Below are positions 2,098-28,744 of a DNA stretch of 31,054 nucleotides, piece by piece (the first letter of the stretch is position 1; each line of letters begins with the position of its first letter). Made by a program: the position numbers and the translations under genes. The notes under the pieces were generated by a model that saw nothing but the letters and a program-made list of their open reading frames with translations, ran no database searches and was not told the DNA's origin. Location of the stretch: positions 1 through 31,054 of IMG/VR virus record IMGVR_UViG_3300045424_000096. One strand, given 5' to 3'. This stretch comes from a virus (Duplodnaviria > Caudoviricetes).

Positions 2098-4575
2098 TTG
2101 GAAGAAATAAAAAAACAGGCTTTGCGAGTTCGTAAACAGGGGCTATCAGTCTTCTCGACTAAGGTCGATAAAACCCCAGTAATTAAGCGAACTAACCGCA
2201 TAGTTGAGCTAAGAGCTAACCCGCTGTCAGAACTTGAAATTGAGATAGATTTCAGCCACGCAAATGTAGCAGGGATAGCAATCAACTGTGGCCCAGTTGT
2301 TGGTAAAAACAAGGATCTTGAGTGCCTTGATATTGATTGCCCTAAAGTGGCGATTGACTTCCTCCCTGACTTGGAAGCAACTAGCAAAGAACTACACGAT
2401 AAACTTTGCGGATGTGTGGAAACAACACCATCTGAAGGATTACACATTTTCTACTATTTGCCACTAGGTAAATCAAAGTGCCGTGAATTAGCGGTAATGT
2501 CTACTGATAATGGAAAGAGATGGCTTGCCGAAGCTAAAGCAAAAGGATCGACTAAAAAGATTGCTCCACCGTTAATTGAAACAAGAGGGGCGGGTGGATA
2601 TGTAGTTGGATTCTATTCTCAGGCAGTCTCAAAAATTGATGGATTAGTTAAGCCATATAAAATGATTCATGGAGATGTGGCAACAATTCCAACCCTGACT
2701 GCGGATGAGCATGAATTTCTGATGTCGTTTGCCCAATCTTACGATCAAAAAGCAGCAAAGAGATTCATCGAACTTAACAAGGAACCTTACCAGTACAAAG
2801 AAATAGGAAAGAAGACTGCCCTTGACCAATGGCGAGCAGAAACTTCTTGGCCCGAAATCCTTCCAGATTCTTACCGAGTAGTTGAGGTCAGGCATGACTA
2901 CTTCATGGTGTGGCATCCTGATTCGTCAGGGCGAGAACCTAACGCTATTGCAGGGTGCAAGAATGGCGGGATGGATCGCTATTGGAACTTCAGCCCATTA
3001 GATTGGCGATTGAGTCCAAACATTCCACTAACTAAAGATTATGTTTATTGTATGAGCCGAGGGTGGCAACCAGGGAGCAGGGAGTGGAAAACATTTTACG
3101 CACAGGTATTTGCGAAGTATTCAATAGACAAAATTGAAGACGAACCTGTGAATGAATCTAGGTGGGATTTTCTTGAAACAACGAAATCGGGTAAAGTTAA
3201 ACAAATTAGAACCGTAGACATTGTGCCTGATGATGCCATTTCTTTTCCAGGTTGGATCGACACTTACATTGACTACTGCATGAGGAACGCACTATACCCA
3301 GAAAAGAGAATTGCTGCTGCATCTGCATTAGGTATGTTCTCCGCTTTAGTGGGTCGATCCATCATGGGGCCGAATGAACTAAAGCTTAACTTGTATATAG
3401 TTGTTCTTGGCCTGACAGCTTCGGGCAAAGATTTTCCACGAAAATTGAACGCTAGAATCTGTATGGAAATTGATAACGCAAGCTTGCTGATGACGAAGGT
3501 AGGTTCAAGAGAGGGTCTTGAAGAAAAAGTAATTCAAGGCCCGAAATTTCTTATGGCTGATGAAGGTGCATTTGATCTTGAGAAAGCTAAATCTGGCGAC
3601 ACAAGGTTCAACGATGTCATGGGAACGATGTTAGAACTGTTTACATCGAACTATATCAAGAGGCGAGCTAAAGCGGGTGATGCGGACTCAGAAAACTTTA
3701 TTCGCTATCCATTCCTTTCCATTATGACTTCATCTACCCCCGAAGAGTATTTCAAAGCTTTATCGCCTAAGATGCTTCGGTCAGGTTTTTACAATAGGTT
3801 GTTAATTCTACAATCTGCAATTCGAGGCAGAATGAATCTTCGGGGTATGTCAGTATCAGAACCAATTCCAGAATACCTAGTTGAAGTTGCTGCACGATTG
3901 ATTGCTATGAACGAGAATCTTGTGCCTGGAGTGATTAAAGAATTCATGGCAGATACTAAACTTGATGCACTTGGAAATGCTCCACTAAATCAGATTGAAA
4001 GGGATTCAAAAATTCTTTTACTTGATGAAGATGCGTTAGAATTCTTTCAAACTCAGGTGTGGGAAAACGATGACCTTTATTCCAAGTATCAAAAAAACAG
4101 CGAAGAAGAAAAAGCTTCTTCATGTGCAAGACTTCCTGAGTTGGCTTTGAAAATAGCTTGCCTGTGGGAGTTAAGCCAAGACATAAACGCTGATACAATT
4201 TCTTTAGCTGGAGTAACTTCTGGATTTAAATTTGTGCGTGAAGTGAATAAGAGGCAGACCGCTAATACAGTTATGGTAAGCGATACCAAGTTCGGTGAAA
4301 TTACAGACAAACTACTAAACATGATCAAGGATTCATTGAATGAAATCGAACCAGATGTGTATGGTGTAAAGATGATTGATGCTAAAAGACATCTCAGGAA
4401 GATCGTACACAGCGGACAATCGGTTGACGATGCAATTCGATACCTTCAAGATTGCGGTGAAATTTCAATCAGGAAAAGCAGAGATGCAAATGGTGCTGGA
4501 TCAATGTACATCGTTATAAATGACCAATCACCTTCTCGATCCCAATCCGAGGAATCGACATCAGAGCTAAGTTAA
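2098..4575 (+). CDS. bifunctional DNA primase/polymerase (Prim-Pol, AEP) fused to a DUF3987/YfjI-like P-loop NTPase (replicative primase-helicase)
   Basis: N-terminal Prim-Pol motifs GIAINCG, CLDID, TPSEGLHIFY, ETRGAGGYVV; C-terminal NLYIVVLGLTASGKD (Walker A) and LMADEG (Walker B). TTG start with AAAGGA upstream. Confidence 0.85.
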   Translation: MEEIKKQALRVRKQGLSVFSTKVDKTPVIKRTNRIVELRANPLSELEIEIDFSHANVAGIAINCGPVVGKNKDLECLDIDCPKVAIDFLPDLEATSKELHDKLCGCVETTPSEGLHIFYYLPLGKSKCRELAVMSTDNGKRWLAEAKAKGSTKKIAPPLIETRGAGGYVVGFYSQAVSKIDGLVKPYKMIHGDVATIPTLTADEHEFLMSFAQSYDQKAAKRFIELNKEPYQYKEIGKKTALDQWRAETSWPEILPDSYRVVEVRHDYFMVWHPDSSGREPNAIAGCKNGGMDRYWNFSPLDWRLSPNIPLTKDYVYCMSRGWQPGSREWKTFYAQVFAKYSIDKIEDEPVNESRWDFLETTKSGKVKQIRTVDIVPDDAISFPGWIDTYIDYCMRNALYPEKRIAAASALGMFSALVGRSIMGPNELKLNLYIVVLGLTASGKDFPRKLNARICMEIDNASLLMTKVGSREGLEEKVIQGPKFLMADEGAFDLEKAKSGDTRFNDVMGTMLELFTSNYIKRRAKAGDADSENFIRYPFLSIMTSSTPEEYFKALSPKMLRSGFYNRLLILQSAIRGRMNLRGMSVSEPIPEYLVEVAARLIAMNENLVPGVIKEFMADTKLDALGNAPLNQIERDSKILLLDEDALEFFQTQVWENDDLYSKYQKNSEEEKASSCARLPELALKIACLWELSQDINADTISLAGVTSGFKFVREVNKRQTANTVMVSDTKFGEITDKLLNMIKDSLNEIEPDVYGVKMIDAKRHLRKIVHSGQSVDDAIRYLQDCGEISIRKSRDANGAGSMYIVINDQSPSRSQSEESTSELS

Positions 4576-6070
4576 AGGCATCTGCAAGGTCAGGAGAGTG
4601 CTTGAGTCTACGCTTCATCATGTCCTTAGACTCGACCACTCTTCTGCCATTTGTATCTACAATGTATACTGGTGTGCGTAACTCTTCCATCATTCTTTCA
4701 CGCATATGAAGCGGAAGATGTCCGATTGAAACTTTGCCTTCCATCGCAAGCTCTGCTGCCTCGAACCAGAGAGCGGATCTCATGTTTGGAAACTCTCGCC
4801 ACCTTGGTGCTTCACCAGACGAATTAATGCCGTAAAACATATAGTCACCCTTGTTATCGACTACACCACCACCTACACCACCCTCATCAATAAGCACAGG
4901 AATTTTGTATTGTGATTGCCTTGGAGTTTCGTACTTTTGGCAATACTCTTTAATTTTTTCTGCAAACTCTTTTGTAGACAATCCACGGTATTCTTTTGCA
5001 TCTATAATGCAGCATCCATGTCTGACAACCAAGCATGATCTATCGTCACCAAACCTTGCAGGGTCAGCACCGATTTGAACCACCCAATCTTTATTAAGCG
5101 GAATCGGATCAAGGATCTGCTTGAGGGCCAAAGCACCCCATACCGAATTGATCGCTTTACTTGGGTATCTTCCAAGAACTTGGATATCGAAAAGCGGGTC
5201 TTCAACCATGTAGTTTCGATCATTGAAGGTAAAGAACCCTGGTTCAGATTCTTCACCTTCTCTAGCGGTTCTGCATTCGTTTTTGATGCGGTTCTCTACA
5301 TACTCATAGTTGATTGCCCCTGGCACAAGATCAGCCTTAAAAGCCACATTAGGGTGGTCGAGAGCGGAGAGGTGGAACACTTTCCAGTCAGGAGAGTTCT
5401 CAGCAAAATAGGCGGGTGATGATGCATCATATGGGTTGAAAATGCAGAACCATAAACAATTCTCTTTGCTGGCTGAAAGCATTGATTCCGCTCGTTCCCA
5501 GAAGGTTGGTTCAATACCGCTAGCTTCGTCAAACAGGATGCACAAACCACCAGCGGAATGTCTTCCTTGAAAAGCATCAGCCTTTTGAGCGGTTAAACCT
5601 TGGATGTAGTGCGAAGGGTTCTTTTCTAATCGATTAGCCTTTGGCATCCAGTTTGGATCTCTTGGTCTAACCCTGCGCAGTTCCTTGAACACACCATCTT
5701 TAATCTGCTGGGCAACAGGTGCTGATATCAAAACTTCTGATGGGGTAAAGTGATCATGAAACCATGAAGCAATCACAGCACACAAAAAAGTTTTGCCTTG
5801 GTTATGTGCTGATCGAACCAGAACTTTCCTTGCACCATTGGCAACCGAATCAAATATTTCCATCTGCTGGGGAGTCAATGTTATCCCTAGGTATTCGCAA
5901 TACTCCCCTGGGTCTTTCGGAATCACTATAGTCTTCTGATTCTCCCGATTCACCCTCTTGATCTCTTGGATTTCCGAAAGTTTCCCCTGCAACGCTGGAC
6001 TCAATAAGGCCTTTTGCCATCTCTTTTGCAAGTTGTTTGTTGAGGAGTTTTTGGAGTTCTTGCTCATCAT
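4514..6070 (-). CDS. terL: terminase large subunit
   Basis: LTPQQ adenine-binding motif, Walker A-like VRSAHNQGKT, Walker B LCILFDEASG, coupling motif FNP, RNase H-like nuclease IGADPARFGDD...SPDLADA. Start moved to ATG at 6070 (or 6067), which has AAGGA upstream; the ORF track start is 6094. Confidence 0.9.
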   Translation of the reverse strand: MMSKNSKNSSTNNLQKRWQKALLSPALQGKLSEIQEIKRVNRENQKTIVIPKDPGEYCEYLGITLTPQQMEIFDSVANGARKVLVRSAHNQGKTFLCAVIASWFHDHFTPSEVLISAPVAQQIKDGVFKELRRVRPRDPNWMPKANRLEKNPSHYIQGLTAQKADAFQGRHSAGGLCILFDEASGIEPTFWERAESMLSASKENCLWFCIFNPYDASSPAYFAENSPDWKVFHLSALDHPNVAFKADLVPGAINYEYVENRIKNECRTAREGEESEPGFFTFNDRNYMVEDPLFDIQVLGRYPSKAINSVWGALALKQILDPIPLNKDWVVQIGADPARFGDDRSCLVVRHGCCIIDAKEYRGLSTKEFAEKIKEYCQKYETPRQSQYKIPVLIDEGGVGGGVVDNKGDYMFYGINSSGEAPRWREFPNMRSALWFEAAELAMEGKVSIGHLPLHMRERMMEELRTPVYIVDTNGRRVVESKDMMKRRLKHSPDLADAFNLALMSIPRIGIEKVIGHL

Positions 6071-6308
6071 CTCGTTCCTTATTATTGCGTTCAATTATCC
6101 ATTGCATGGCTCGCCAATCCTCAGAACCATGTTCATGGATAACCTGTTGCATAGCAATGGTTGCCTGTGCTTTGGCCTTAACCATTTCTTTTTTATGCCA
6201 AGGTTCAAGATCCCTTTTAGAAATCCCAAAGGCCTTCATGGCTAATTTAAAATCAATTCCACGCTGAATATTCTCCAGCATCTCGTAAAAACTGTCTGAA
6301 TCTATCAT
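5850..6308 (-). CDS. putative terminase small subunit
   Basis: Directly upstream of and overlapping terL; HTH-like N-terminus (FKLAMKAFGISKR) and DWRAMQWIIER, similar to the DWRAAAWLLER motif seen in small proteins preceding TerL; RBS AAGGAG; ATGA overlap with the previous gene. Confidence 0.65.
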   Translation of the reverse strand: MIDSDSFYEMLENIQRGIDFKLAMKAFGISKRDLEPWHKKEMVKAKAQATIAMQQVIHEHGSEDWRAMQWIIERNNKERDDEQELQKLLNKQLAKEMAKGLIESSVAGETFGNPRDQEGESGESEDYSDSERPRGVLRIPRDNIDSPADGNI

Positions 6309-6564: not shown

Positions 6565-7079
6565 TGGCAGATTTAGTAGGAGCTATAGAAAAGCTGAAGA
6601 GACTTTTAGAAGACCGAGCAAAGCGGGTGGGCAGGGCTACGAACACTAATCCAGCACCTAACCCAGATATTGAAGCAACTAATAATTCCATCATATATAC
6701 ACCACCGTCTGCTTGGATGAAATCGCTAGAATACTTCCCTATGGCTAAAGCTCAATCAGGTTCTGTTGTAATGAGGGCTAGAGGCCCAAATATCGGTTAT
6801 ATTTATCCAAGGGTTGGTAAGGCCATTTTCAATAAATGGGTGGCAAATAACTTTCGTGGAGGGTTTATATACTGGTATGCATCACCATCATTAAAAGACT
6901 ATTCAATCATTGCAAGAAAAGCTCGACCATTTAGAAGAGGCGGGTCAGGTAGACTTGGAATTGTAGCGGTAAGAAACAGGAAGGTTCGAGGAACGATGTA
7001 CACGGCTATACCTAAGAACATAAGAGACAGAGGCAGAGCTTCAGCAAGAATTGCCAAGAAAAACAAATGGAGATTATAA
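6564..7079 (+). CDS. KTSC-like domain protein with a very basic C-terminal tail (putative nucleic-acid binding)
   Basis: SAWMKSLEY...GYIYPRVGKAIFNKWV...GGFIYW follows the KTSC pattern (S-x-I-x3-Y...YxYxxV-x4-Y/F...G-x2-Y/F); Arg/Lys-rich last 55 aa; RBS AAGGGG. Confidence 0.55.
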   Translation: MADLVGAIEKLKRLLEDRAKRVGRATNTNPAPNPDIEATNNSIIYTPPSAWMKSLEYFPMAKAQSGSVVMRARGPNIGYIYPRVGKAIFNKWVANNFRGGFIYWYASPSLKDYSIIARKARPFRRGGSGRLGIVAVRNRKVRGTMYTAIPKNIRDRGRASARIAKKNKWRL

Positions 7080-13330: not shown

Positions 13331-14311
13331 TTATATCGACCAATCGATAGTTCGTGCAGGGTATCCATCAAAATTAGAGAAAGAAAAAACTTCCTCAAGA
13401 CAGATTCTATCCATGTCCTTGGCTTTAATCCAATAGGAACCCTTGGGTTCACCGTAATTGCCTAGCGGGGTTCCATGAGCATTACCCCATGAATTCTGAA
13501 TCAAAAAGATCAAACCAAAGTCTGGATGGGTGGTGAAGCCCAAGCATGACTGTTGGTGGCCCCACGATTGATTTCTTGAGGCTAATTGGACAGCAGGGGT
13601 TCCAGATGGCTTTACTTTAAGATCGCTAAATCCAAACCAAGAAGAAGCTATAGTGACAGGGTATCCATGCGACAAGGCTTGTTTAACCTCTTCACTATTT
13701 TTAAGCTTTGAAGTGCTTTGAACTTTGAACTTATTTGCTGAAGCATCAATATCAATGGGTGGCTTGTCACCATTTGACCAAGCGGTTTCTGCTGATGCAC
13801 CAAAAGTCCAAGAACCATCTTGTTCTTTAATCGGTTGCGGGTAACTAGGATCTAATGGGGGGCAACCATCTTCGTTTAGGGATTCTGCCATAGAACTGCC
13901 AAAAGAACCTTCGCCTGTTCCATGCAATCCACCACGCTTACGAGATTGACCGTAATTATAAAGAATGAATGGAATTCTCCATTCTTCAAATGTTTGCCGT
14001 TGAGATATTATTTCAACCGCTTGTAAAGTAGCCATTACCGCTAAAGCACCATGACCTACACATGAACCTGTTTTCTGATTCCAAGGAAAAAATTCGTAAC
14101 CAGCAGCTTGGTTAACCACCTTGTAAAGAAGTGATTCCTTTAGATCCAGCGGAGGGCCAGAAATTTGAAAAGGAACTAACTTTGCGTTGAACTTATCTTG
14201 GAGTTCTTGAGGTTGAGATTCAATTGGCAACCAGCCAAATTTATTAGATTCAATTGGCGGTTCTTTTGCTTTATTTCTTTCGCCAAATTTTGGCTGGTTT
14301 TCCATAGACAT
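13331..14311 (-). CDS. papain-like cysteine peptidase (clan CA, C1-like)
   Basis: Oxyanion Gln and catalytic Cys in NQKTGSCVG, catalytic His in WGHQQSCLGF, Asn in IQNSWG, and GSYWI; TAATG overlap with the upstream gene. Confidence 0.85.
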   Translation of the reverse strand: MSMENQPKFGERNKAKEPPIESNKFGWLPIESQPQELQDKFNAKLVPFQISGPPLDLKESLLYKVVNQAAGYEFFPWNQKTGSCVGHGALAVMATLQAVEIISQRQTFEEWRIPFILYNYGQSRKRGGLHGTGEGSFGSSMAESLNEDGCPPLDPSYPQPIKEQDGSWTFGASAETAWSNGDKPPIDIDASANKFKVQSTSKLKNSEEVKQALSHGYPVTIASSWFGFSDLKVKPSGTPAVQLASRNQSWGHQQSCLGFTTHPDFGLIFLIQNSWGNAHGTPLGNYGEPKGSYWIKAKDMDRICLEEVFSFSNFDGYPARTIDWSI

Positions 14312-14937
14312 TATTTTAATTCCTTTGCTATCTGAGTGAATTCTTTAGTAAGAAGATCCCTGAGTTTTTGATCAAGCTTTAATGTGCCATCTTTGGGTAA
14401 TCTTTCGTTGAGTCTTTTCCCAATTACATCTCTAAGATTAGCAAGCTCGTTTTCCATAAATTGTTTATTGATGGTTGCTTTTGCTGCCTTGAAAACATCT
14501 GTAAGAAATTCGTAGTCGTTTTTCTGACATTCTTTTGCAAGTTCATCATAAAACATAGACAACCACTTTACTTGATCTTTGTCTTCTTTTGCTGCTGCTG
14601 TTCTGATGTCATTATCAGGATTTACTGGTGGAGCGGGAGCGGGTTCATCACCGATCAATACAGATGTAAACGCTGGTTCAGAAGGGCCAAACTCATTACC
14701 AACATAAGCAAATAATCTGTACACACCTTGTATCTGAGAAGTAACTACCAAGGTTTTGGAGTCCTTTAGCAAATCCACAGGGAAAATGTTTAGGCCTTTA
14801 TCAATTGAAACCCATTTGACTGCTTTAGATTCAGTCTTGGCTGGAACGCTTATAAAAGCTCCAGGTTGACCAGAAACCCTTGCTGGAAGCTCTATAGTGG
14901 GAATCTGAAGAAACACTAAAAAAAGAAGGTTTATCAC
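14311..14937 (-). CDS. putative exported protein (signal sequence, beta-rich domain, Pro linker, helical domain)
   Basis: Hydrophobic N-terminus MINLLFLVFLQ; Ig-like stretch ending GVYRLFAY; EPAPAPPVNP linker; GTGA overlap with the HNH stop. Confidence 0.7.
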   Translation of the reverse strand: MINLLFLVFLQIPTIELPARVSGQPGAFISVPAKTESKAVKWVSIDKGLNIFPVDLLKDSKTLVVTSQIQGVYRLFAYVGNEFGPSEPAFTSVLIGDEPAPAPPVNPDNDIRTAAAKEDKDQVKWLSMFYDELAKECQKNDYEFLTDVFKAAKATINKQFMENELANLRDVIGKRLNERLPKDGTLKLDQKLRDLLTKEFTQIAKELK

Positions 14938-23879: not shown

Positions 23880-26800
23880 TTATACTGGTGCTGAAGTTGG
23901 TTTACTATGACCCGCCCTAGAAAAAGGATCTTTACCTTGAATTCCAGCGTTACCTTTATCAGCACCATTTGCTGCTATCATTCCATCTTTAAACGCATCT
24001 CTTAAGTTGTCCTTGCTTAACTTGTCAGAGATGTCTTTCAACGATTCTTCTTGGGTTTTAGCACCTGTTGCTGCCATCAATGCTTGCTTTCTAACCTCAT
24101 CGCCAACACCAGATATAGAGGTCGATTGTGTTTCTCTTACAGCAGCACCAACTGAAGAACCTTTTTTAATCCCAACTCCTGTTACATCACCAGATTTGTA
24201 CCTAGTGTTATCCTTCATTTTGTAATCAGGATCACTAAACTTTCCAACTATGTTTTCAAAACCTTCACCCATTTTTGCAAGACCCCTGTCTCTTTGCTCT
24301 TCACCCTTTTTTTGAAGATCAGAACCACTTGCTTGGACTGATTTTCCTGAATCGCCAACTGCTGTTCCAGCAGCAGAAAGTGCAGAACCAATTGTTTTCA
24401 TGCCAGGAATATAAGAAAGAAGATCGCCAATACCTTTTACCATGCTTCCAAAACCGCTAATCAACAACCCTGCTAACTGAAGTATTACTCCCATACCAGA
24501 CATAAACAAACCTAATACTGTTACTATTGATCCAACAAGCATTTTTACAACTTGCCCTAGTATCTCAAATCCATCTTTCATAGCTTTTGTTATTGGAATT
24601 CCTCCCAAAAAACTTTGCACAAGCTGAGTAAATGATTCTACAATTTCTGCAAGAATTTGAATCACAGGGTCAAGCATAATTGCAAAACCTTCAACAGCAA
24701 CAGCAACTATTTCAAATGCTGGAGCAAGAAACTGTGCAACTACCGCTTCCAACTCAATCAATGGCATAGCCAATGTTGCAAAAGCATTAGCGATTGGAGT
24801 TATTGCTGGCATCAACATTTTCATTACAAAATCAACGCCATCGCCCAAAAATCGAAGAACAGGTATAAGCCTTTGAACTACTGGAACTAAAGCTCTTCCT
24901 ATAACCCCCTGCAAGTCATTCATTGCAAGGTTTACTTGCTCCATAATTGCTGGATTGTTTTTTGCAACAAAACTTCCAAACATACCTATGGCATCAGATG
25001 CTGCCTTAACGCTTCCAGTAAGCACAGAAAACGCTTGACCAACAGGCCCAAGAGCTAACGAAGCTAAACCCCCAACAATTCCTTTACCACCACCCCCTGG
25101 AGTTCCACCAGCAAAATATCCAACCTTGCCTCCAGAAGACTTGTTCATGGCATCAATTGCTGCTTTGTTCTCAGGCTTTTCAGCAGCAGATTTTTTTACT
25201 ACTTCTTCCCCTGGAGTAAGCATAGCTGGAACAGTATCGGTTCCTTTTGGTTTAAAAGGAGTGTCTTCATCATCTATTTCCCCACCATCCGCACGATAAT
25301 TTTTGTATTTGTTTTCGTAGTTTGTATCTGTATCCCAATTATTTTCGTCATTATTAAGAAGTGATTTTTTCTTCTTTTTCTTTTTCTTTCCGCCAAACAT
25401 ATTGCCGAATACACTTCCTATACCTTCAAATATTCCACCCATACCACTCTTTGGCTTTGTGCCTTCAGCAAAGTATTTGGTTGGTTTTTGGTCTGGAAAA
25501 TCATCTCCATTTATCCCGCCTGGAAATCCTTCATCAGGCTTTGAAGAAGGATCATTGCCATCGCTGCTTCCAGATGATTCACCACCACTAAACATTGATC
25601 CAATGCTGCTAAAAATACTGTCGAAAATACCAGCAAGACCTTTTGACCCAGCAAAGTTAACTCCTTTTTTGGATTGTGTTAACTTGGTAACAACCAACCC
25701 CAGTTGTTTAATTTTGTTGTATGCCTCTTCTTCGGTAGCAGCATCAACCGTATCTTTGGTTTCGTTTCCTTCAGCATCCATTGCTTCATAATCAAAAGTA
25801 GGAATAGTTATTCCACCTTTAGGTTTACCTTTAGGTTCTCCTTTAGGTTCTCCTTTAGGTTCTCCTTTAGAACCACCGCCAACAGGAGAAGCACCAAATA
25901 TTGATTTTACAAAATCTAATATTGGACTTTTGCCAGAGAAAGATTGATTAATTCCAGATATGGTTGTAGCAATAACATTCTGTACGGATTTTCCCATTTT
26001 TCCAAACATTGCTTCAAACAAAATCCCAAAATTGTCAACACCTTTTTTAATAGATGCATCTTCCTGTTTTAACTGATATTCTCTTGCACCTTTTTGAGTT
26101 GGGCCTACAAGCGGTACTTGCTCTTCAACTTTTTTTGATTCTTCTTTTTTTGCTTCTTCTTTAATGTCATAAGAATCTCCACCAGAATACTCTACAGCTT
26201 TTACAACAGATGCCATTTCCTCAGATGTCTGTTCAAGTATTCTTATTATCGGGTCAGCAAAATCTGTACCTGGGTCAAACTCTTTAGTTTGTTTTGGCCT
26301 AGATTCATCTGCTATTGAAAAAACATCTTTCCATTTGCTTGCACTTTCAGCAGCGTTGGCAAAAACATTATTCCATGCTGCTGAAGCATTCATAATATCG
26401 CCAATGAACTGGGGTGCTATATCTACACCCTTACCGGCCTCTTTTTTTACCGAACTTCCAGACAACGCACCCATGTCCATTTCAAATGGCTTTTCTTTTT
26501 TACCCTTCTTCCCACTCTTTGTCATTGCTGAAACCTGTTCTTTTGTTACAGCAAATACATCACCAAAACCCTTTCCTACATTTTCAAAAACCTCTTCTAT
26601 AGATTGCTGTTGAGTATCAGCATCAGTTTTCTTTCTTCTAGTGGTTTTTCCTTCATTTACACTTTCAATTTGCAATTGAAGTTTTTTTGCATTAAAGATT
26701 GCTCTTTCTTGTGCAGTCTTAAGGTTAAGTGCTTTAACCTCTGCTTTTATTCTTTTATCTTCTTCTTTTTGTCTTGCAACTGCTGGATCTTGTGACGAAG

Positions 26801-27050
26801 GTGATCTGCCCTGAGATGCTCTAGGTGCTGCACTAGGGCTACTTGGAGCAACATTGCTAGCAGAAGCCTTAAGTGAATTGATTGAGTCTATTAAAGAAGA
26901 TTTTAAGCCATCAATGGCTTTTGAAAGTGAATCTATACTTGATGAAAATTCTGCCGATCCCAACTTGACATTTACAGCGATTGTTTCAACCGCTTTAACC
27001 ATATCGGAAGTGAATTCTGATTCAGACTGCAATGGGATATCGGTTGCCAT
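23880..27050 (-). CDS. tail tape measure protein
   Basis: Follows the frameshifted chaperone pair; long helical Ala/Gly-rich and hydrophobic amphipathic region; ADGG...GTDTVPAMLTPGEEVV motif common in TMPs. Confidence 0.88.
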   Translation of the reverse strand: MATDIPLQSESEFTSDMVKAVETIAVNVKLGSAEFSSSIDSLSKAIDGLKSSLIDSINSLKASASNVAPSSPSAAPRASQGRSPSSQDPAVARQKEEDKRIKAEVKALNLKTAQERAIFNAKKLQLQIESVNEGKTTRRKKTDADTQQQSIEEVFENVGKGFGDVFAVTKEQVSAMTKSGKKGKKEKPFEMDMGALSGSSVKKEAGKGVDIAPQFIGDIMNASAAWNNVFANAAESASKWKDVFSIADESRPKQTKEFDPGTDFADPIIRILEQTSEEMASVVKAVEYSGGDSYDIKEEAKKEESKKVEEQVPLVGPTQKGAREYQLKQEDASIKKGVDNFGILFEAMFGKMGKSVQNVIATTISGINQSFSGKSPILDFVKSIFGASPVGGGSKGEPKGEPKGEPKGKPKGGITIPTFDYEAMDAEGNETKDTVDAATEEEAYNKIKQLGLVVTKLTQSKKGVNFAGSKGLAGIFDSIFSSIGSMFSGGESSGSSDGNDPSSKPDEGFPGGINGDDFPDQKPTKYFAEGTKPKSGMGGIFEGIGSVFGNMFGGKKKKKKKKSLLNNDENNWDTDTNYENKYKNYRADGGEIDDEDTPFKPKGTDTVPAMLTPGEEVVKKSAAEKPENKAAIDAMNKSSGGKVGYFAGGTPGGGGKGIVGGLASLALGPVGQAFSVLTGSVKAASDAIGMFGSFVAKNNPAIMEQVNLAMNDLQGVIGRALVPVVQRLIPVLRFLGDGVDFVMKMLMPAITPIANAFATLAMPLIELEAVVAQFLAPAFEIVAVAVEGFAIMLDPVIQILAEIVESFTQLVQSFLGGIPITKAMKDGFEILGQVVKMLVGSIVTVLGLFMSGMGVILQLAGLLISGFGSMVKGIGDLLSYIPGMKTIGSALSAAGTAVGDSGKSVQASGSDLQKKGEEQRDRGLAKMGEGFENIVGKFSDPDYKMKDNTRYKSGDVTGVGIKKGSSVGAAVRETQSTSISGVGDEVRKQALMAATGAKTQEESLKDISDKLSKDNLRDAFKDGMIAANGADKGNAGIQGKDPFSRAGHSKPTSAPV
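25816..25870 (-). repeat. 12-bp tandem repeat (~4.6 copies) encoding (PKGE)n linker in the TMP
   Basis: CCTTTAGGTTCT units starting at 25816 (variant), 25828, 25840, 25852 and 25864 (partial). Confidence 0.9.
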
Positions 27051-27052
27051 TT

Positions 27053-27409
27053 TTATTTCCTTGGAACTTCACCATATTTTTGCTTCCAAGACTCAATCAT
27101 CTGCTTACTACTGGCCCCGATCATAGCACCCATTTTCATAAAATTATCAAATTTATTCAACAACAAATCCTGTGTACTTATCTGTTTTCTTCTTTGATTC
27201 CATTCGTGTTGTTCATCAGGTATAGTCACAGGAACACCTTTATCATCCCTAGTTCTATAATACAGTTCAATGATCTGCCTATCCGTCAAACGCTCTATTT
27301 CCCAAGGGCGAAGAAGATAAGGCTTGTCCATTAAATTAACAAAATAGTTTTTTAAATTAGGTGGAGGTATTGGTTCATTTGTTGCCTGACCATTTACCCC
27401 CTCCTTGCG
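27053..27409 (-). CDS. tail assembly chaperone, -1 frame extension (gpT-like part of gpGT)
   Basis: The -1 frame is open from the slippery site (RKEGVNGQATNEPIPPPNLKNYFVNLMDKPYLLRPWEIERLTDRQI...) to TAA at 27053; PWEIERLT is typical of gpT-like segments. Confidence 0.8.
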   Translation of the reverse strand, partial: RKEGVNGQATNEPIPPPNLKNYFVNLMDKPYLLRPWEIERLTDRQIIELYYRTRDDKGVPVTIPDEQHEWNQRRKQISTQDLLLNKFDNFMKMGAMIGASSKQMIESWKQKYGEVPRK

Positions 27410-27816
27410 TTTGGGAAACTCTTCTCCCGAACTATTTCCATCACAGCTTCAAATCTTTCCTTCTCTGACATCATCAAAGATTGCACTTCATTTTCTGGGG
27501 CAGAAAACAATGATGCTGCTAATGCAATTGCACCAGAAGGTGTAGACATTGCTGCTATGGATAGTTCGCTTCCAAAAGAATATGCTCCAGAAGCAATATC
27601 CCTTGTTACAGAAGATATCGCTTCACGGAACTCAACTGGCTCAAGATTGTTCTTGAGAGAAAATACAGCATCTAACGCTTTCTTTTCCATTCTCTTTTCA
27701 AAGTCAGCTTTAACTTTTTGTGTAATGAGTCCAGCGGTATATTTCTTACCGTTAAATTCAATAGTTAAAGACCCTTCGCCTTCGGAATTAAGAAGGCTGT
27801 TTACTGTATCTGACAT
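27394..27816 (-). CDS. tail assembly chaperone (gpG-like)
   Basis: Between the tail tube and TMP genes; ends with the slippery heptamer; RBS AAAGGA. Confidence 0.8.
   Translation of the reverse strand: MSDTVNSLLNSEGEGSLTIEFNGKKYTAGLITQKVKADFEKRMEKKALDAVFSLKNNLEPVEFREAISSVTRDIASGAYSFGSELSIAAMSTPSGAIALAASLFSAPENEVQSLMMSEKERFEAVMEIVREKSFPNARRG
27409..27415 (-). other. -1 programmed ribosomal frameshift heptamer C CCA AAC
   Basis: In-frame X XXY YYZ at codons TTC CCA AAC (FPN), three sense codons before the stop; the -1 frame joins the downstream ORF. Confidence 0.85.
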
Positions 27817-27834
27817 ATGCTTCCTTTCAAAATT

Positions 27835-28224
27835 TTAACCAACAATAAAACTAAACTGTCCATAAGTTGCAAAAGTAAGGCTCATCTTTTGGATGTCTTT
27901 TACCGCTGCATCATAATTGATAGCAGTTAATACACAATTGGTTATTGTGTATGTAACAGGATTTACCGCATCTTCGCTGTTATCATCGATAATAACAATC
28001 GATCCAGTCGATCCAACTTTCAATCCGTATCCGTCAATAACTTCAAGCAAATCACAAGTTATTTCAGCCGAATACAATCCAATAACATGGGAATCAAATC
28101 CCATGTTGTTGAAATTAGTCGAGTCAATTGTTTCCGCTTTACTGTTAACGGATATATTGGTTGCTGGAACACCTTCCAAATCACCAATCGATAATTTACC
28201 ATATCTTCCTGAGAGAATAGCCAT
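27835..28224 (-). CDS. tail tube-like protein 2
   Basis: ATG at 28224 after AAGGAG (MAILSGRYGKL); AETIDSTNF...IGLYSAEIT pattern of siphovirus tail tubes; paralogous to the upstream gene. Confidence 0.7.
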   Translation of the reverse strand: MAILSGRYGKLSIGDLEGVPATNISVNSKAETIDSTNFNNMGFDSHVIGLYSAEITCDLLEVIDGYGLKVGSTGSIVIIDDNSEDAVNPVTYTITNCVLTAINYDAAVKDIQKMSLTFATYGQFSFIVG

Positions 28225-28240
28225 TATTAAATCTCCTTGA

Positions 28241-28744
28241 TTAGAATGCAACTTCGCCAAAGTTAACGGTAGCAGATGCAGAAGGAATCAAAGTCAATTT
28301 AACCTTCTGAACATCTTTAACAGGCACATCATAAGTGACCGCAGTAACCGTACAGTTTTCAAAAATAAATGTTAACGGATCGCCACCATAAGGCCCATAT
28401 TCATTTGTTCCTAATGTAGCTTCAGTTGATGTTGGGCTTAAACCTAAAAATGCCCCCCTGCCACCAGTAGGAGAAAGCTCTACATCAGCCTTCATGCCAG
28501 CAAAAATGGGTGGCAATGCAACCTTATCGTAAAGAATTTCAACAGTTATTTCTGCACTTTTGATGCCTGGAACTAATCCTGTGAAACCATTAGTTGCAAA
28601 GCTAGATGCATCAGGTGTATCTATTTTTGTAGCTATGCTTGCGGTTGTAACCGGAAGGGTTCCAGTACCTACGGTTCCATCAGTTCTAAGCATACCAAAC
28701 AAGGCTATTTTGCCTGTTAAAAAATAATTTGTGACTGCTGCCAT
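28241..28744 (-). CDS. tail tube-like protein 1 (major tail protein)
   Basis: DTPDASSF...VPGIKSAEITVEILYD and NCTVTAVTYDVPVKDVQKVKLTL; RBS AAGGAG; follows the tail terminator. Confidence 0.72.
   Translation of the reverse strand: MAAVTNYFLTGKIALFGMLRTDGTVGTGTLPVTTASIATKIDTPDASSFATNGFTGLVPGIKSAEITVEILYDKVALPPIFAGMKADVELSPTGGRGAFLGLSPTSTEATLGTNEYGPYGGDPLTFIFENCTVTAVTYDVPVKDVQKVKLTLIPSASATVNFGEVAF

Follow-up and report, generated by a model that had tools for sequence, protein, structure and literature searches.

Why should the tape measure protein (TMP) of a phage carry a domain that belongs to the platform protein of a bacterial type IV pilus? This question is raised by a 31-kb phage contig (31,054 nucleotides, here called the window), in which profile searches recovered genes for capsid, tail, terminase and primase. 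The gene in question lies on the minus strand at 23880..27050 and encodes a protein of 1056 amino acids. It is a long ORF that follows genes in the positions of tail tube and tail chaperones, it matches the TMP profile phrog_305 (PHROG profile search, E=1.3e-8, aa 669-900), and it contains a hydrophobic block with candidate membrane-inserting segments (24438..24752, minus; aa 767-871; Kyte-Doolittle 19-residue windows >1.6). Directly upstream, at 27053..28744 (minus), are two major-tail-like genes with weak PHROG major-tail matches (E 0.002-0.004) and two small genes that we call tail chaperones by position only, this being the usual place for such genes. Comparison with viral relatives reveals that the middle region of the TMP is highly mosaic. 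A poly-Lys tract (25365..25388, minus; aa 555-562) lies between the pilus-like module and the hydrophobic block and is found in relatives without the module, too.

The remainder of the window offers some further observations. The terminase genes (4514-6308, minus) are not next to the capsid module but follow downstream of the tail and fibre genes, which share their strand. A gene pair at 13331-14937 (minus) encodes a peptidase-like protein, presumably a papain-like peptidase by its motif, for which Pfam gave no match, and a protein with a Pro-rich linker (14311-14937) that has relatives in 46 of 267 Gemmatales genomes. The pair is possibly a lysis or wall-remodelling cassette of planctomycete phages. 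Among the matches listed, 16 of 21 sequencing runs hold at least one fifth of the window, and all 16 are freshwater or lake metagenomes; RNA runs contained 0.00-0.08 of its words.

The original prediction had placed a PilC/GspF N-terminal-like module within the TMP at 25665..25870. Residues 416-462 (25665..25805, minus) do carry a copy of this N-domain (Pfam T2SSF_N), as judged by profile match, ESM Atlas and predicted fold, while the rest of the range is not module but a Lys/Gly/Pro/Glu-rich linker of 12-nt repeats (PKGE/PKGK; 25812..25868, minus; aa 395-413) just before it. The 47-aa segment matches the N-terminal positions of the respective models, as had been expected of it: positions 1-43 of the TIGR02120 GspF model (E=4.6e-6; with the whole TMP, positions 1-44 at E=2.2e-4) and positions 1-50 of the Thermus PilC model NF052607 (E=0.0054). 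Its top ESM Atlas cluster is PF28597 T2SSF_N (score 0.96, 213 of 256 features). With a profile of the non-TMP matches, the real TMP reaches 69.7 bits, while the best of 500 shuffled TMPs scored 5.6 and the best of 2000 shuffled segments 13.8; this profile derives from matches to the segment itself, and the independent support therefore comes from the NCBIfam and ESM Atlas results. On these profile-based grounds the segment is a genuine PilC/GspF N-domain, with a resemblance far above chance. A local Pfam scan of the TMP gave no module match, the Pfam copy used being one without PF28597. The PDB sequence search with the segment returned chance matches only, the word-indexed homologue search with a 56-aa segment 0 of 16 candidates, the annotated-phage search with the module no match, the plasmid search one weak match (E=0.1), and the viral scan with the segment no useful match.

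The remaining parts of PilC are absent. The TMP has no PF00482 match and hence not the whole architecture of an N-terminal N-domain with two T2SSF domains and transmembrane (TM) segments, and it scores 20.6 bits on the GspF model against a cut-off of 424. Thus, the TMP segment is a domain copy and a member of T2SSF_N, not a PilC. With the exception of the start Met, the window copy retains the positions that are invariant in hosts (98-100% in 118 host domains, a set from which six duplicate or truncated loci were excluded); these are E422, A423, D425, G428, A437, E442, A443, G451 and T455. At other host-conserved sites the copy has drifted, namely to V453 from F (91% in hosts), to L452 from Y/F and to Y444 from Q. 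The net charge of the window module (416-461) is -5, with a range of -3 to -6 in ten TMP copies and a mean of -3 in hosts. At the position of the start Met the compact TMPs have Ile, Ala, Asn or Thr. In the window the codon of this residue, I416 (ATT), sits about 6 nt after a GGTGG purine run (25803-25820, minus), and the same is seen in the viral relative L001; an internal start here would yield a product of about 640 aa with the PilC-like domain first, but other carriers have Ala, Asn or Thr at this position and such a start is thus not general.

AlphaFold2 models the module with strands at 6-12, 18-24 and 41-48 and a helix at 28-37 (mean pLDDT 85), so that the predicted fold is the beta-beta-alpha-beta arrangement that had been anticipated. 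The top Foldseek rows for this model are YkzG (E=0.073) and T7 Gp2 (E=0.12), none at E<=0.001, and the same two proteins are named as nearest solved folds of the PulF N-domain in the available text of PMC10790770. A solved PilC N-domain was absent among the fold-search matches, the best of which had a Z of 6.3.

From which host could the domain have come? A phmmer search of 1.84 billion representatives gave 249 matches at E<=0.001. Among the best 150 of these, 26 have the N-domain followed by PilC-core motifs and 104 begin with the domain and continue into truncated, shifted or other tails; the others comprise five long proteins with internal copies, five short tandem proteins, four with N-domain and TM segment and four of other types, and P0030 and P0090 were dropped as spurious repeats. 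A degenerate DNA pattern found at least 120 loci in species genomes (7 of 64 parts scanned). Among the pattern matches listed, 119 of 120 loci have the domain and 111 of 120 are titled Planctomycetota, with five naming other phyla; since the pattern had been derived from the window and its matches, the result describes the distribution of this type of sequence and not that of the family at large. L077, the remaining one of the 120 genome loci, and L012 and L014, two of the six viral pattern matches, lacked a profile match and were discarded as chance matches. The similarity to planctomycete PilC N-termini noted in the original prediction is therefore well founded. Of 70 host loci with sufficient flanking sequence, 67 encode a PilB-type ATPase directly upstream and 65 have a PilT-type motif, and complete host operons have the order pilB-pilT-pilB-pilC, with pilin-like genes after pilC where seen. 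For these reasons we regard the donor as the platform of a retractile type IVa pilus.

Host domains of the Gemmatales type come nearest, with 61% identity for the window copy (L072), 65-70% for L001 and 76-80% for the sister TMP P0005; a 140-row tree was mostly unresolved. The domain is present in 243 of 267 Gemmatales genomes, and 24 of the 267 contain relatives of the window capsid (best 38%, E=2e-58). As Gemmatales was the sole order searched, these capsid relatives and those of the 14311-14937 protein are only consistent with a Gemmatales host. The module has a GC content of 37.6%, like its TMP gene (39.1%) and unlike the closest host loci (45-66%); this points to either an old capture event or a host of low GC. 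Taken together, the module was likely captured from the type IVa pilus operon of a Gemmatales-type planctomycete. Nine genomes among G253-G267 have capsid relatives, and one Gemmatales contig (L197, G158:C90) carries a window-like capsid-tail cluster in which the TMP position is taken by a mere very short ORF; perhaps this is a domesticated element.

The domain is not confined to PilC in these hosts, and it might accordingly be a general docking tag in planctomycetes, which the TMP uses to bind a target other than the pilus motor, such as another membrane complex, lipids or a decoyed defence protein. In Gemmatales proteins of about 220-255 aa that are not PilC (L207, L210, L213, L214 and L225), a divergent N-domain at the start is joined by a linker to a hydrophobic stretch, and P0004 fuses a Ser/Thr kinase to two N-domain copies and two T2SSF domains, an architecture suggesting a coupling of kinase signalling to the pilus platform. 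In simulations the N-domain of PulF binds anionic lipids (PMC10790770, in its available part), and TMPs have been described as being recognised by a membrane defence nuclease. However, the window copy is 52-61% identical to PilC of a pilT-pilB-pilC operon and only 22-35% to the Gemmatales non-PilC proteins, and the module is acidic, unlike the Arg-based lipid binding described for PulF. We consider a target other than the pilus motor rather unlikely.

A second question is whether the phages make use of the domain. The linker, the module and a downstream spacer form a swappable cassette (aa ~387-500, approximately 25551..25892, minus), in place of which module-less relatives have unrelated or shorter sequence. 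Six viral relatives were compared; L001 has the module, four are without it and one ends before its position. The linker repeat number is unlike between the window and L001. Among 86 TMP homologues the module occurs in 8 of 33 close clusters (>=66% identity in the C-terminal half) and in 0 of 53 others; the eight carriers are exactly those flagged PF28597, and both flanking anchors are present in 31 of the 33. The module always sits in one slot, and in all compact-TMP carriers a K/P/G/E-rich linker precedes it. On a tree of the TMP C-terminal region, which left out five TMPs without the anchor motif, the module label needs eight changes, at least six of them forced by starred branches; shuffled labels need 9.0 on average, and 132 of 500 shuffles were as low as the observed eight. 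We read this scatter as exchange among phages by recombination; gains and losses cannot be told apart by the count. In contigs from two other studies an allele occurs in which the sequence of 25557-25725 is replaced, in line with several alleles in circulation.

Between the window and L001 dN is 0.161 and dS 0.588 (dN/dS ~0.27; Fisher p=0.003). In ten compact-TMP copies the host-conserved columns stay conserved (0.89 vs 0.66; Spearman 0.56, p=7e-5), and the host-conserved polar residues E422, D425, E430, T455 and K456 are kept in all ten. One copy (P0180) is only 37-50% identical to the other TMP copies. By these measures the module is under purifying selection. A decaying one-off insertion, which would have spoken against the original prediction, is ruled out by dN/dS and by recurrence, and a chimera with a host contig is ruled out, since many independent records have the module in frame within a contiguous TMP.

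The survey of TMPs for recurrence also extended beyond the compact family. The TMP-position ORF of another phage (L007, 3134 aa) carries the module, and in a family of giant TMPs it is found in 8 of 10 proteins, six with one copy and two with five. When the window TMP is compared with the giant P0094, the module is the best-scoring common segment, with 55% identity compared to about 24% elsewhere. TMPs of about 1000 aa and of about 3000 aa alike have their strongest copy at a distance of 554-833 aa from the C-terminus, where it precedes the hydrophobic block. Two further phage proteins have the domain: a protein of more than 2394 aa without PHROG match (L009, 7-7188), where it lies about 400 aa from the C-terminus and is closest to Thermoguttaceae hosts (70%), and a 94-aa protein of N-domain and TM segment in a phage accessory-gene region (L010, 6013-6294). 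In a 43-row tree, which left out P0180 and the weak P0006 copies, the compact-TMP and L007 copies group (85/96) among Gemmatales-type hosts, while starred branches join L009 to Pirellulales and L010 to sequences of Phycisphaerae type. A common clade of all phage copies is rejected, marginally and on 46 columns (p-AU 0.033). This suggests, without proving it, at least three captures as well as transfer between TMP lineages. The giant P0006, for which the viral scan gave no match, is called TMP-like solely on its sequence, which is 43% identical to the C-terminal region of P0094. Its first copy and the window module have in common an 11-residue stretch that includes Tyr where hosts mostly have Gln. 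Two giant TMP-like proteins (P0252 and P0253) carry PF00565, which we take to be the staphylococcal-nuclease family, and P0006 and P0094 have a similar-looking stretch by eye. The L010 contig also encodes an 80-aa ORF without PHROG match (6840-7079), presumably an HPr-like phosphocarrier by its motif.

These data bear on the idea that the module is a neutral or structural passenger, a stable domain acquired by chance and kept folded only since misfolding would harm tail assembly. The mosaic middle region, the majority of close relatives without the module, the degenerate copies (P0180 and three of the five in P0006) and a similar small fold in portal-vertex proteins of the virion (Z 6.3 and 5.2, below the level that exceeds a common arrangement) would all suit a passenger. 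A passenger would, however, hardly account for at least three separate-looking captures, amplification to five copies, the similar distance from the C-terminus and the polar residues kept in ten of ten copies, and we regard this idea as quite improbable.

What, then, might the domain do in a TMP? The original prediction offered two possibilities, docking of the ejection channel at the pilus base and jamming of the pilus for superinfection exclusion. The ejected TMP is thought to span the envelope, and a virion delivers only few TMP chains. This is too few to titrate all pilus machines of a cell, so a local job suits the module better than cell-wide jamming, and jamming is the weaker of the two ideas. 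We tentatively favour a captured PilC N-domain that, as an optional cassette of the TMP, docks the ejected channel on the pilus motor or platform. After ejection the module, tethered by its flexible linker ahead of the membrane block, would regain its fold, mimic the host domain and bind whatever the PilC N-domain binds. This reading supposes that the module reaches the cytoplasmic face of the membrane and that pili are the site of phage entry. Such binding might hold the DNA-conducting TMP channel at the pilus base or stall the motor there. The proximity to Gemmatales-type PilC, the selection, the recurrence and the similar C-terminal distance speak for docking, and two precedents point in the same direction. 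During injection the TMP of lambda associates with ManYZ, a complex of the inner membrane (10.1101/2025.11.03.685801, as far as the available text goes), and an N-domain mutant of Neisseria is suppressed by loss of PilT (PMC10790770, likewise in part), which links the N-domain to motor dynamics.

Several points speak against docking. The module is missing from 25 of the 33 close TMP clusters and is thus not needed for entry in this TMP family. It is located about 300 aa before the hydrophobic block and may remain periplasmic, outside the compartment in which the domain normally resides. The drift of the window copy at V453, L452 and Y444, the divergence of P0180 and the marginal AU result also count against it. 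The statement that the N-domain engages the pilus ATPases is not established: in the available text of PMC10790770 the domain is mobile, has no identified partner and is dispensable in PulF, Pseudomonas PilC and Neisseria PilG, although full efficiency requires it. When the module was modelled together with PilB (N2D+CTD) and PilT of a single host operon (Gemmataceae), the complex scored 0.02 (mark 0.32; controls not folded), which counts neither for nor against binding. A pilus-binding tail protein was not identified in the window.

Jamming would mean that the partner of the PilC N-domain is titrated by the module, which either arrives with the virion or is synthesised as part of the TMP in late infection, and that pili are thereby shut against competing phages. 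Phage proteins that block pili are known, with PfsE binding PilC and Aqs1 and Tip binding PilB (PMC8764522, in its available part). The patchy presence of the module fits competition between phages, and avidity would gain from the five tandem copies that two of the giant TMPs have. A jamming role would also suit the small phage or unplaced proteins in which the N-domain is combined with one or two hydrophobic segments (L010, P0098, P0107, P0111 and P0126); P0049, P0127, P0134 and P0143 look likewise by eye. Proteins of the L010 type may be good candidates for pilus-directed exclusion. For the TMP module itself the argument is weaker, as known exclusion proteins are small and stand-alone whereas the module is an internal segment of a 1056-aa virion protein, and loss of the PulF N-domain merely lowers efficiency (PMC10790770, in its available part). 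It seems rather unlikely that jamming is what the module does. Somewhat less likely than docking alone, although plausible, is a combination in which planctomycete phages have repeatedly captured the PilC N-domain as a virion-delivered mimic that, built into tape measures (1-5 copies) and further ejected proteins, anchors entry at the pilus motor, with the small membrane forms then shutting this motor.

The module matches the N-domain of PilC/GspF/PulF (PF28597), as covered by the available text of PMC10790770, in motif, predicted fold and nearest solved folds. In contrast to the PilC N-domain it is internal to a phage virion protein and without the Cyto1/TM/Cyto2 core, and it is acidic where the PulF N-domain is Arg-rich, with the start Met replaced in compact TMPs. 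Phage-encoded copies of a host type IV pilus component have been described before in the prophage proteins P-FimU and P-PilA (PMC12952977); the section on them, in the part available, names beside FimU the PilA-like proteins as the sole pilus mimics. However, these are stand-alone extracellular pilins in defence, while the module is a cytoplasmic platform domain fused into a tail protein. PfsE, Aqs1 and Tip (review PMC11436027) act on the inner-membrane pilus motor or platform, but are small stand-alone inhibitors that the accessible sections do not describe as host-derived domains and that are not parts of a tape measure; another pilus-directed phage protein, Zip, is reported to bind PilZ. 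In the lambda case a TMP likewise contacts a specific inner-membrane complex of the host at entry, yet the available text describes no captured host domain, whereas here the candidate contact element is a recognisable one. A literature search, with most subscription papers outside it, found no title or abstract on a PilC/GspF domain in a TMP. What the window contributes is the compact TMP family with its plus/minus cassette, together with statistics on selection, the operon of the donor and captures that look separate.

The finding is a real, selected capture of a host domain in a virion protein, with a putative function. How TMPs choose and engage inner-membrane complexes of their hosts during DNA injection is poorly understood, and a natural plus/minus cassette with a recognisable host domain makes this question testable. 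The phage copies reveal which residues of the N-domain survive outside PilC, and the domain serves as a host marker, Gemmatales-type Planctomycetota, for uncultured freshwater phages. If the proposed roles are true, a single host domain of 46 aa would underlie a phylum-wide strategy of entry and exclusion and would point to the partner of this domain.
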